NCBI GenBank assembly: GCA_958009085.1
Contig: OY253668.1
Coordinates: forward strand, 1,674,001 to 1,738,000
Direction: 5' to 3'
Origin: Protoeuglena noctilucae
Lineage: Eukaryota
DNA length: 64,000 nt
Made by a program: the position numbers and the translations under genes. The notes under the pieces are model-generated. The model saw nothing but the letters and a program-made list of their open reading frames with translations. It ran no database searches and was not told where the DNA came from. Numbering within the stretch: the first letter of the stretch is position 1; the number at the start of each line of letters is the position of its first letter. This document shows positions 37,664-41,783 of this stretch, piece by piece.

Positions 37664-40600
37664 ATGTCGGGGCGGAAACGGACACTGGAGCTGGACGATG
37701 AGGCGTCCGGGAGGTTGAATCCGGCGTCGGGGCCGTACCTGAACCAGTACACGGGTGCGAGCGTGCGCTGCCGGCCGCCCGCATCGACCGCCGCAATTGC
37801 CGCACTCGCCGATTCCCCGGCGCGATGGAGCACCTGGAATACATGTTGTCGGCATGTCATGTGCGCCTCCGAGCGCGTTTGATGTCCTGGGACGTCCCTT
37901 TTGCCCCACAGCGTGCTGGGACTCTCTTCCTTCTAGCGGCGCGTGGTTTTCAGCGCATCGCTTTCGCTCGCCTGCTTCCCTGCAGGTCGCCCTTACAGCG
38001 AAGCTTACTACCGCATCCTGGAGAAGCGCAAGGAGCTGCCTGTGTGGCAGGCGAGGGAGCAATTCCAAGAAATGCTGAGGAAGCACCAGACGATCATTCT
38101 GGTCGGGGAGACGGGGTCGGGGAAGACGACGCAGATCGGGCAGTTCGTGCTGGAGGGGGGCTACTGGTGAGGCGGGGTGTTGAGGGAGAGCAAAGGGCGG
38201 GCGCCTCACCTGGCCGCGCTCAGCCACCCCTGCATATTCAGTACTGTCTGCAAGTAGTAGCAGCAAGAAGTAGCACCTCTCACACCGACCTTGCTTCCCG
38301 CACCCACCTCGCCTGCAGCCAAGGGGGCAAGCGCGTGTGCTGCACGCAACCTCGCAGGGTGGCCGCCACATCAGGTGCGCATGGGACGGTCGCACGATGA
38401 TGAGGCTTTTGAAGAGCAGTTCATCAGACGACAGGTGCCACAGGTGCCATGTGTATCTCACACCATCTCTTCATCTCATCTGTCCGTGCCCTCCGCTCCC
38501 AGTGGCGCGCCGCGTGGCCCAGGAGATGGACGTAGAGTTGGGGCAGCAGGTGGGCTACTCGATCCGTTTCGAGGAGCGCACGAGCCCCTCGACCATCCTT
38601 AAGTTCGCCACCGACGGCATGCTGCTGAAGGAGGCCATGACTGACCCCTTACTCGAGCGCTACTCGGTCATCATCCTTGATGAGGCACACGAGAGGACCC
38701 TGGCCACCGACATCCTCTTCGGGCTCATCAAAGTGGTGAGGTGGACTGACGTGATGTTGCTTTGTGTGGCTGACCTCTTCGGGCTCGTCAAAGTGGTAAG
38801 GTGGATGTATGACCTTGCTACGTGTAAAGTACAACGACCTCTTTGCTTGTGCGACCTTTCTGCTCTCCCCTCGCCCTTACCTCGTTATCACCCACCACTC
38901 CCCCGTCTCCCGATCTCCGGACCCCACCGCTGCCCCACCCTCACCCCCCGGCAGGTCCTGACCAAGCGTGCCGACCTGAAGCTGGTCGTCATGTCTGCCA
39001 CCCTGGAGGCCGAGAAGTTCCAGGATTATTTCGAGGACGCGCCGCTGATGAAGGTCCCCGGGAGGACGTTCCCTGTGGAGGTGTTTTACACTGAATCACC
39101 GGAGAAGGACTACCTGGAGGCGGCCATCCGCACGGTGGTGCAGGTGGGGAGGTGGCTGTTGTGGGCACATGGGGGGGTGTTGGGGGTGGCGGGCACGTGC
39201 ACGGTGGCGCAGGTGGGGAGGTGGTTGGGGGTGTGAGAGATGTGAGGGGTTGGGTGAGGCAGCCACCCATCCAGCAACATTCGCCCCTCCACCCTCACCC
39301 CTCACCCTCACCCCCCTCGCCCCCCAGATCCACCAGTACGAAGACGAGGGCGACGTCCTGATCTTCCTGACGGGCGAGGAGGAGATTGAGGAGGCGTGCC
39401 GCAAGATCCGATCCGAGTGCGAGGGGCTGGGGGACCGTGCAGGGCCCGTCAAGGTGCTGCCGCTCTACTCCAGCCTCCCGCAGCCGCAGCAGGACCGGAT
39501 CTTCGAGACCGCGCCCGTCAACCCAGACCCGAAGTGAGTCAAACAGTGGCGCCCATGGACTGGTGGCATGGGCGGGTTTGGGAGTGGATGGGGCATGCAC
39601 AGTTGGGTGCGCGTGACGGATACGATAGCCATGGACAGATGGATGCAGGCTGCTGTGACTCGATCGCATTGCACCTGTCCTGCATCGCACACACCCGTCC
39701 CCTCACACTCATACCTCCCCTACCACCCCGCAGCGGCCGCCCTGGCCGCAAGATCGTGGTCTCGACCAACATCGCCGAGACGTCGCTGACGATCGACGGC
39801 ATCGTGTACGTGGTCGACCCCGGCTTCTCCAAGCAGAAGGTCTACAACCCCCGCGTCCGCGTGGAGTCTCTGCTGGTGTCGCCCATCTCGCGGGCCTCCG
39901 CGCACCAACGCACCGGTCGCGCCGGTCGCACGCGGCCGGGGAAGTGCTTCCGGTTGTACACGGAGCAGTCCTTCCACAAGGACCTGCAGGAGCAGACGTA
40001 CCCGGAGATCCTCCGATCGAATCTCAGCAGCGTCGTGCTCGACCTGAAAAAGCTCGGCATCGATGACCTCGTCCACTTCGACTTCATGGACCCCCCCGCC
40101 CCCGAGACCCTCATGCGAGCGTTGGAGCTGCTCAACTTCCTGGGGGCGCTCGACGACGACGGCAACCTGACCACGGTGAGAGACTACGGCGCAAGATACG
40201 TTTCGCGTTGCAATATAGTGTTGATGTGTGTGAGGGTGGCTGTTTGACCACGGTGAGGCATACGCACACACCCCTGCTCACTACTCCTCATTGTTCCATT
40301 CACCCTGACCCCCGCTGCCCCGCACGTGTGCGTCACTCACCTGGCCACCCCCACCGTACCCCCAACGCAACCCCATCCCCCCCATCCCTCGCCTCCCCAG
40401 GTCGCCTCCATCATTGCAATCTCGCTTGCTTAGACCCCCGCTCACCCCCACTCCCACCCCCGCTCACCCCACCCCCGCTCACCCCACCCCCACTAGCCCA
40501 CACCCCCACCCGCCTCCCCAGGTGGGCTCCATCATGGCTGAGTTCCCCCTGGATCCTCAGCTGGCGAAGATGCTCGTGGCGGCACCCGAGTTCAACTGCT

Positions 40601-41783
40601 CCAACGAAGTGTGCACCATTGCGGCCATGCTGTCGGTTCCCAACGTGTTCATGAGGCCCCGGGAGCAAGCGAGGGCTGCCGACGAGGTGAGGGTGGGGAT
40701 GGGGGTAGGGGTGTCTGTGAAACGGACGCGTCGACGGGCGGCGTTGATGGGCCCAATCGCAACCGTAACCCCACTCCCCTTGCCCCATGCTAAACTCTCC
40801 CTCTCAAACCTACAACCAAACCCCACTCCCCTGCAACCCCTGCCAATCTTTCCCACTCACACCCACACGTCACCCTACTCCCCTCGCCCCCAGGCCAAGG
40901 CGGCTTTCTCTCACACCCGTAGCCCCACTTCCCCACATACCGACCCCCCTCACCCACACGTCACTCCACTTCCCCCAGTGCCCAGCCAGCCCACACCCAC
41001 ACGTCACCCTATTCCCCTCCCCCCCAGGCCAAGGCCGCCTTCTCTCACATGGACGGAGACCACTTGACCCTTTTGAATGCTTTCCATGCATGGAAGCAGC
41101 ACAACGAGGACCCTAATTGGTCATGGGACAACTTCCTCAACCAGAGGGCACTTAAGATGGCAGATAACATCCGCAACCAGCTCGTGCGCACCTGCACCCG
41201 GCTCGGTTTGCGTATGGTGTCGAACGATTTCAACTCCAAGGACTACTACCCCAGCATCCGCAAGGCCATCCTAACGGGCTTCTTCTCACAGGTGAGGGGT
41301 GGGGTGGTGGGAGGTGGGTGCACAGTGGTGGGTGGGATGTGGGATGGTGTTTAGGACGCACTGTGGGGTGTGGGCTGGGCAGTGCTGTGGGCGATGCGAT
41401 GCGGTGGGTCTAGTTCCAACAGCTGTCCTCTCCCTCACCACCCTTTCCCACCAACTCACCCTGCACTCCCTCCACACCCCACGCCTTCCCAGGTTGCCCA
41501 CCTGGAGCGTACCGGCCACTACCTGACCGTCAAGGACAATCAGGTGGTGTTCCTGCATCCCTCCTGTGTCCTGGAGCGCAAACCCGAGTGGGTGCTGTAC
41601 CATGAGTTTGTCCTCACATCTCGCAACTACATCCGCACGTGCACGGAGGTGCGGGGGGAGTGGCTGTTAGATATCGCGGAGCATTACTATGACCTTGGAA
41701 ACTTCCCGCCCGGGGAGGCCAAGGCGGCCCTGGAGAGGCTGGCGATGCGGACGCGGTATGAGCGGGCCAAGGGGGGGGCGTGA
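37664..41783 (+). CDS. PRP43: DEAH-box splicing helicase PRP43/DHX15
   Basis: [61 protein letters not shown] and the OB domain [14 protein letters not shown]; about 10 exons. Confidence 0.97.

Follow-up and report, generated by a model that had tools for sequence, protein, structure and literature searches.

The window analyzed here, a 64,000-nucleotide (64-kb) stretch of contig OY253668.1 from Protoeuglena noctilucae (positions 1,674,001 to 1,738,000), carries a gene for a PRP43/DHX15-type DEAH helicase in whose introns five of the gene's own splice junctions recur as diverged, spaced duplicates. We refer to these duplicates as echoes. A donor echo lies downstream of the true donor and an acceptor echo upstream of the true acceptor; the exon model fixes which sites are the true ones, so the upstream donor copies and the downstream acceptor copies straddle real exon-intron borders. 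We favor, with a probability of about 0.65, the reading that the echoes arose as neutral scars of error-prone break repair, laid out as copy, spacer and copy, in introns that are rich in G and C runs and confined to this lineage.

All five pairs had been described in an earlier note made from the sequence alone, and all were recovered at the same positions and with the same identity counts (Table 1). Each of the five inner copies retains GT (donors) or CAG (acceptors), and the two donor offsets of 60 and 69 nucleotides (nt) are in frame, as the note had stated, and free of stops; use of the intron 5 donor echo would add 23 amino acids (aa). The note had also regarded the DNA between the copies as largely unrelated. 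This holds for the spacers, which are not significantly similar to their flanks, with the exception of intron 5, where the whole 69-nt unit aligns with the following 70 nt at lower identity. Because the spacers are unrelated to the flanks, the echoes are not simple tandem arrays. A general repeat search reported four of the five pairs, and the pair beginning at 40390 and 40511 was found by dedicated junction scans. Echo events make up 60 of 219 nt in intron 4, 69 of 184 nt in intron 5, 198 of 346 nt in intron 7 and 134 of 341 nt in intron 8, by which measure these introns have been lengthened by 27–57%.

Table 1 Coordinates of the helicase gene, its junction echoes and related repeats. Positions are those of the window; identities are given as matching over aligned positions, and offsets in nt. 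UTR, untranslated region.
Feature	Position	Strand	Details
PRP43/DHX15-type DEAH helicase gene	37664–41783	+	10 exons, 9 GT-AG introns, 705 aa; homology-based exon model
True exon 4/intron 4 donor copy	38714–38745	+	donor GT at 38736
Intron 4 donor echo	38774–38805	+	30/32, +60, GTAAGG, in frame; use would add 20 aa
True exon 5/intron 5 donor copy	39116–39158 (core 39130–39155)	+	donor GT at 39144
Intron 5 donor echo	39185–39227 (core 39199–39224)	+	core 25/26, long form 36/43, +69
True exon 7/intron 7 donor copy	40168–40180	+	donor GT at 40176
Intron 7 donor echo	40245–40257	+	13/13, +77; use would shift frame
Intron 7 acceptor echo	40390–40417	+	25/28, 121 nt 5′ of true acceptor; frameshift if used
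True intron 7/exon 8 acceptor copy	40511–40538	+	exon start 40522
Intron 8 acceptor echo	40858–40915	+	54/58, 134 nt upstream; frameshift if used
True intron 8/exon 9 acceptor copy	40992–41049	+	exon start 41028
Intron 8 internal repeats	40764–41017	+	40767/40819 14/14; 40853/40944/40987 at 81–87%
Stop-codon echo, PRP43 3′UTR	41771–41808 vs 41820–41857	+	34/38, +49; TGA 41781–41783 in copy 1
Donor echo, weakly YqaJ-like gene	14448–14507	−	donor G 14492, echo 14457, 24/25, +35, 10-nt spacer
Donor echo, Hsp70 gene	59984–60098	+	donor G 60019, echo 60083, 40/51, +64
Donor echo, oxysterol-binding-protein gene	61879–61951	−	donor G 61938, echo copy 61879–61909, 26/31, +42

The identity of the host gene was assessed from its translation. 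The frame of the 705-aa model is open throughout; residues 1 to ~701 align at 73–75% identity to chlorophyte proteins of 701–724 aa, and one 598-aa protein matches at 85% identity. Relatives that match at 93% identity over exon 7 carry the Joint Genome Institute (JGI) name DHX15/PRP43, exon 7 alone matches the Pfam families Helicase_C (26.9 bits) and HA2_N (21.8 bits), and the translation contains the DEAH motif ('LDEAHERT'). Judged by this full-length similarity together with the DEAH, helicase C-terminal and HA2 features, the host gene is a PRP43/DHX15 DEAH-box helicase; the PRP2/16/22 paralogues are longer than PRP43/DHX15. Splicing at the canonical outer sites yields a complete, conserved PRP43 with zero indels at any junction.

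We compared the echoes with chance expectation in two ways. The introns available for this purpose were 24 defined introns, nine of PRP43 set by homology and 15 set by RNA contig joints (the best-supported 15 of 38 joints, none of them in PRP43). In the first control, every junction window was matched to its own intron, with 552 cross-intron comparisons as the null. The five PRP43 junctions scored 26, 23, 13, 19 and 46 against null maxima of 11 for donors and 12 for acceptors, the 13/13 pair being the weakest. In the second, intron interiors were block-shuffled in 27 introns, three of which had been added for carrying an echo; seven junction-straddling pairs were observed against 0.05 expected. 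The earlier note had proposed a genome-wide scan of intronic matches against shuffled controls, and over these 27 introns of the 64-kb window such a scan returned a clear excess.

An assembly or haplotype artifact, in which two alleles stand in series, is a very improbable source of the pairs. The window does come from a marine metagenome, and in one independent sequencing run, X4, the contig graph branches at the G-rich stretch 41770–41848, with the PRP43 contig at one third of its neighbor's depth. However, a 26.9-kb contig of this run, which belongs to another sample and another study than the possible source, spans 37401–41799 with 0 differences and 0 gaps, that is, 4.4 kb with all the intronic echoes. 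Moreover, sampled 31-mers of the window were present at 100% in four runs of organism A and at 96% and 75% in two further metagenome runs; a run holding 98% of the 31-mers was treated as the possible source and left out of the count of support. The copies also differ by substitutions and enclose unrelated spacers, which is unlike alleles in series. Long reads exposing the copies as artifacts had been named in the earlier note as grounds for giving them up; the check made here, on the independent X4 contig, found the echoes carried without difference. As a separate observation, the depth step in X4 sits at a G-rich repeat of the 3′UTR, where several contigs of 31–54 nt with one-base gaps branch off, and the step could reflect a haplotype or copy-number difference.

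Echoes also occur elsewhere in the window. A further one, absent from the earlier note, surrounds the PRP43 stop codon and holds the last ten coding bases, the TGA and 25 nt of the 3′UTR. Three other genes each carry a donor echo, namely a weakly YqaJ-like gene (Pfam YqaJ 17.4 bits, under the cut-off of 22), an Hsp70 gene (Pfam HSP70 21.2 bits) and an oxysterol-binding-protein gene (Pfam Oxysterol_BP 46.1 bits), in the last of which the echoed GT has become AT. The window thus contains eight splice-junction echoes, five of them in PRP43, and nine events when the stop-codon echo is included. Across these nine, copies of 13–58 nt recur at offsets of 35–134 nt around unrelated spacers of 10–93 nt, and 37 of the 319 aligned positions differ. 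The Hsp70 intron, as well as PRP43 introns 7 and 8, contains repeats that lie wholly within the intron, those of intron 8 including a third, exon-less copy of the 3′ end of the intron. In addition, a C-rich 56-nt unit is present three times at 52414–52628 (86% and 66% identity; spacing 75 and 84), in intergenic DNA or a 3′UTR, 3′ of the stop codon of a neighboring gene at ~52221. These results indicate that the echoes are specific neither to PRP43 nor to splice sites.

We then consider the age of the PRP43 introns. The nearest relative found in a metagenome scan, locus L001 (68.8% G+C), is 84% identical in aa and ~80% identical in nt within exons, and because it keeps an intron at aa 109, its sequence is genomic. 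It is contiguous over aa 109–702 and lacks seven of the nine PRP43 introns (2 and 4–9), intron 1 lying beyond the stretch that it matches. At all nine PRP43 positions the other 79 loci are without an intron; between 46 and 80 of the 80 loci are contiguous across each position, with the qualification that some of them may be transcript contigs. In the PRP43 introns of other taxa, junction-straddling repeats were present in 0 of 47 introns from 18 metagenomic loci, and internal repeats in 3 of 47. The orthologue comparison that the earlier note had called for in sister strains was run on these metagenomic loci; it found no junction echo in the 47 introns, and no locus closer than L001. Taken together, the distribution across the loci indicates that the PRP43 introns are young and lineage-specific. 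The tblastx matches to the flanks of L001 were dominated by low-complexity GC-rich sequence, and synteny was not used. The one intron shared with L001 (aa 109; ~128 nt at 1343–1469 of L001, with window intron 3 at 128 nt) contains there an 18-nt C-rich direct repeat at a spacing of 24.

Two known sources of new introns were also considered for this set. All-against-all comparison of the 24 introns, and of the introns with the 64-kb window, gave no family-level similarity, and introner elements were rejected for want of a shared intron family within these 64 kb. Origin by AGGT tandem duplication was rejected as well: blastn of the introns against the window returned only two echo matches, and by this search no intron start repeated its downstream exon and no intron end its upstream exon.

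The mechanism that we favor would begin with a break in an intron or 3′UTR, after which an adjoining stretch of 13–58 nt would be recopied 35–134 nt away. End joining after one end had been over-extended, or filled in over its flank, would leave a direct repeat around a junction insert, in a pathway resembling polymerase-theta-type tandem duplication with junction inserts, and the rest of the intron would continue unaltered past the second copy. The layout expected when ends are joined by polymerase theta (theta-mediated end joining, TMEJ), a direct repeat flanking a short unrelated insert, is seen in the nine events. Such an event would be tolerated only where the extra copy falls in non-coding DNA, exonic events being purged by selection. 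Where the break lay less than one copy length from a border, part of the exon would be carried into the intron together with a whole splice site; the outer site would stay in use and the inner one would become a pseudo-site. Introns rich in G and C runs, and hence prone to form G-quadruplexes (G4), would make PRP43 a local hot spot. Under this model, copying that sets out from a break in the intron could not yield a purely exonic copy, and none was seen; with the exon-anchored half of a pair unable to drift, straddling pairs would stay recognizable for longer.

The earlier note had offered, as one of two interpretations, a junction-targeted duplication process that lengthens introns. Its duplication footprints and its intron growth are supported, with 60, 69, 198 and 134 nt added to the four introns and with the same architecture in three genes unrelated to PRP43, around a stop codon and within intergenic sequence. 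Targeting of junctions as such is unlikely, although several features speak for it. In this scenario, a process coupled to splicing or transcription, through R-loop- or G4-prone breaks at intron ends or through copying from partly processed RNA, would aim at junctions, and echoes would become a main route of new-intron growth in this alga. Each of the eight copies that contain exon sequence crosses the junction, with no purely exonic copy among them; in the six donor copies the intronic portion is short and of like length, at 5–18 nt; straddling pairs outnumber intron-only pairs; and echo introns are associated with G4 motifs. Against targeting, a stop codon is straddled by an echo too and intergenic DNA also contains copies; purely exonic copies are unexpected in any case if copying of the flank sets out from a break in the intron; the sample of 27 introns, three of them added for carrying an echo, is small; and no trace of an RNA intermediate was observed. 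The excess of seven straddling over four intron-only pairs fits a selection filter combined with better preservation of the exon-anchored copy.

The association with G and C runs was examined across the introns. A G4 motif, scored on one strand, was present in 6 of 7 echo introns and in 5 of 20 others (Fisher p = 0.009). Total G/C-run content was likewise higher in echo introns (one-sided Mann-Whitney p = 0.011 for 27 introns and 0.009 for the 24 unbiased ones). When G4 clusters were counted in 2-kb bins, the bin at 40–42 kb, where PRP43 lies, held 10, the maximum of the window, whose overall G+C is 66.7%. The bin at 60–62 kb held 7; it covers the downstream part of the Hsp70 intron with the internal repeat, and the oxysterol-binding-protein echo. 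Many introns have a G-rich 5′ half and a C-rich 3′ half (38736–41492 and 60019–60362), with GC skew of up to +0.76 and −0.74, and through this half-intron skew the G-rich beginning of an intron is complementary to the C-rich end of the preceding one (40680–40705 vs 40379–40404, 77% over 26 nt).

The 24 introns supplied a position weight matrix with which the inner sites were scored. Inner and true sites reached 6.3/6.3, 7.7/6.8, 9.5/10.2 and 11.5/12.4, with the intron 4 echo, GTAAGG, lower at 3.8/7.7, and the intron 5 echo donor equals its true donor over all scored positions. The three frameshifting echoes of introns 7 and 8 (offsets 77, 121 and 134) would, if used, lead to stops at aa 490, 477 and 579 of 705. 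Among the GT/AG positions of the eight splice echoes, 1 of 16 has been lost against 1.9 expected (P of ≤1 = 0.43), a loss close to the neutral expectation and thus without sign that the inner sites are under selection in either direction. Two RNA contig pieces end at 39734 and at 40174, in agreement with the true intron 6 acceptor and the true intron 7 donor, the second piece belonging to record 1 of RNA contig X10; the RNA depths are contig means and uninformative on the PRP43 introns.

PRP43 has a role in discarding suboptimal splicing substrates, and the other interpretation of the earlier note was that the inner sites act as decoys in an autoregulatory, fidelity-sensing circuit, in which competition between sites yields unproductive or crippled PRP43 mRNA. 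With junction duplicates of equal strength, the productive share of PRP43 mRNA would report how the spliceosome resolves competing sites, and repair scars would have given rise to a lineage-specific feedback. The statistical reality of the clustering in PRP43, the retention of GT or CAG in all five echoes at scores like those of true sites and the early stops at aa 477–579 of 705 that three of them would cause all favor such a circuit. Nonetheless, we consider both the circuit and a feedback of this kind improbable. L001 lacks seven of the nine introns and does not cover the first, no position is intronic in the 79 other loci, and with junction echoes in 0 of 47 introns of other taxa the sites are not conserved among relatives. 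Like structures are found at the stop codon of PRP43 and in three further genes (Hsp70, oxysterol-binding-protein and YqaJ-like). Splice dinucleotides are kept no better than under neutrality, and two of the echoes, in frame and stop-free, would add residues without a premature stop. The sign of the feedback is also awkward: by reasoning, less PRP43 activity would increase decoy use and lower PRP43 further, making the loop positive and destabilizing and not homeostatic. The circuit thus lacks positive support.

The two in-frame donor echoes could alternatively be alternative 5′ splice sites that produce PRP43 isoforms longer by 20 or 23 residues. Their offsets of 60 and 69 are open and in frame, and the intron 5 echo donor is identical to the true one over the scored positions. 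The insertions would, however, fall in what we read from the model as the conserved helicase core, and full-length relatives align with no large gap (≤15 gapped positions in ~700). A run of 23 open codons is unremarkable at 67% GC, and the other echoes shift the frame. Isoforms are for these reasons a most doubtful explanation.

Several points weigh against scars of neutral repair and limit the confidence placed in that reading. First, the echoes are clustered: they occur at 5 of 18 PRP43 junctions versus 0 of 30 in the 15 RNA-supported neighbor introns (Fisher p = 0.005), and versus ~3 of 182 junctions elsewhere when ~100 introns are assumed for the window (p = 1.6 × 10−4). The enrichment in PRP43 is real, and because of it a uniform neutral rate is insufficient. 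The rough total of ~100 rests on an intron finder whose 76 predictions included 16 of the 24 known introns; it gave 3–4 false calls per strand on reversed sequence and missed all three non-PRP43 echo introns. Outside PRP43, no echo scoring at least 12 was present in the 59 introns that it predicted or in the 15 known ones. Within the unbiased set of 24, intron-only repeats are likewise restricted to PRP43, which points to a whole locus rich in duplications and not to junctions alone. Second, straddling pairs (7) exceed intron-only pairs (4, with chance alone expected to give 1.5 of them), whereas a break with copying of its flank would by itself predict a minority of straddlers; we invoke detection bias as a possible answer. 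Third, the G4 correlate was identified after the fact, and for the two acceptor echoes it is in part circular because these themselves duplicate C-runs; G- or C-run content and GC skew of the 5′ or 3′ intron halves, taken singly, did not separate echo introns. Fourth, no spacer matches its flanks above shuffles, and neither microhomology nor a templated origin of the spacers could be demonstrated. Fifth, the inner sites match the true ones in strength in four of the five PRP43 cases, so their silence is assumed here, not seen. Finally, word depth in run X4 is 64 on the PRP43 contig and 182 on the adjoining contig (41819–57400), a step that may reflect an unseen second haplotype.

Sources for the spacers were sought in the flanks and elsewhere in the window, where nothing convincing was found; of the nine spacers, one contains a local inverted 8-mer (Hsp70) and one a third repeat copy. 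In the 13-nt spacer of the Hsp70 echo, the 8-mer at 60039–60046 is the reverse complement of 60073–60080, the most diverged part of the echo, and this may be the trace of a snap-back.

Among described systems, the closest case is the minisatellite in intron 7 of human F7, in which the first unit spans the exon 7/intron 7 (IVS7) border and identical 5′ pseudo-sites are normally silent (PMC1557585). As in F7, a border-spanning repeat places copies of the authentic site inside the intron, here five of them with GT or CAG kept. In that account the most upstream donor of F7 is used and the others are silent (PMC1557585); silence of the inner sites in PRP43 would be the analogous outcome. F7 differs by its head-to-tail array of 37-bp units (PMC1557585), whereas the PRP43 pairs consist of two copies with unrelated spacers and form no array. 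PRP43 differs further from the F7 case as given there (PMC1557585) in that acceptors are echoed besides donors, and in several introns of one gene.

A review treats tandem duplication, together with break repair, as a source of introns and of latent splice sites (PMC3443670). As in the internal gene duplication outlined there, short intragenic copies add splice sites, the spliceosome removes the surplus and the coding sequence is kept. The AGGT model, as the same text presents it (PMC3443670), derives a new intron from a duplicated exon, whereas in PRP43 an existing intron has been lengthened and its ends are unlike the opposite exon. In break-repair intron gain, DNA inserted into genes leaves direct repeats, a likeness shared with the present case together with a lineage that has recently gained introns; there, however, short repeats flank a whole new intron, and in PRP43 both copies stand at one end of an existing one.

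A study of C. elegans describes breaks that originate at G4 motifs and are repaired through alternative end joining, and reports tandem duplications with TMEJ-type junctions (PMC8654963). The direct repeats around a repair junction, the possible filler and the G-run motifs as a break source resemble what that study describes; its duplications span ~100 bp to 10 kb and arise in repair mutants (PMC8654963), in contrast to copies of 13–58 nt in a wild alga. Introner elements (PMC9860276) share with this locus the setting of many lineage-specific introns in an aquatic alga, and differ in that the 24 introns here have no family in common, among themselves or with the rest of the window. In a limited literature search, no account of spaced duplicates of junctions gathered in a single gene came up. 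What sets the present case apart is the combination of spaced pairs, donors and acceptors alike, and six boundary events in one gene, in lineage-specific introns rich in G and C runs of a green alga.

If the echoes are indeed repair scars, the locus would be a clean natural record of young-intron growth, with datable local duplications that account for about a third to a half of four introns, and the surviving events would mark the boundary between constrained and free sequence. The natural, near-identical pairs of donors and acceptors within one pre-mRNA could also be used to probe site choice by a green-algal spliceosome and its cost. By themselves, the PRP43 echoes reveal no new regulatory principle.

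Other features of the window are recorded for completeness. Positions 22589–22788 consist of 200 N. G-rich arrays of 12–14-nt GGGAGRTG-like units lie inside predicted introns at 62187–62373 and 59217–59319. Three of the 15 RNA-supported neighbor introns have GC-AG ends with GCGAG donors, at 44554–44748 (−), 44884–45087 (−) and 51036–51130 (+).

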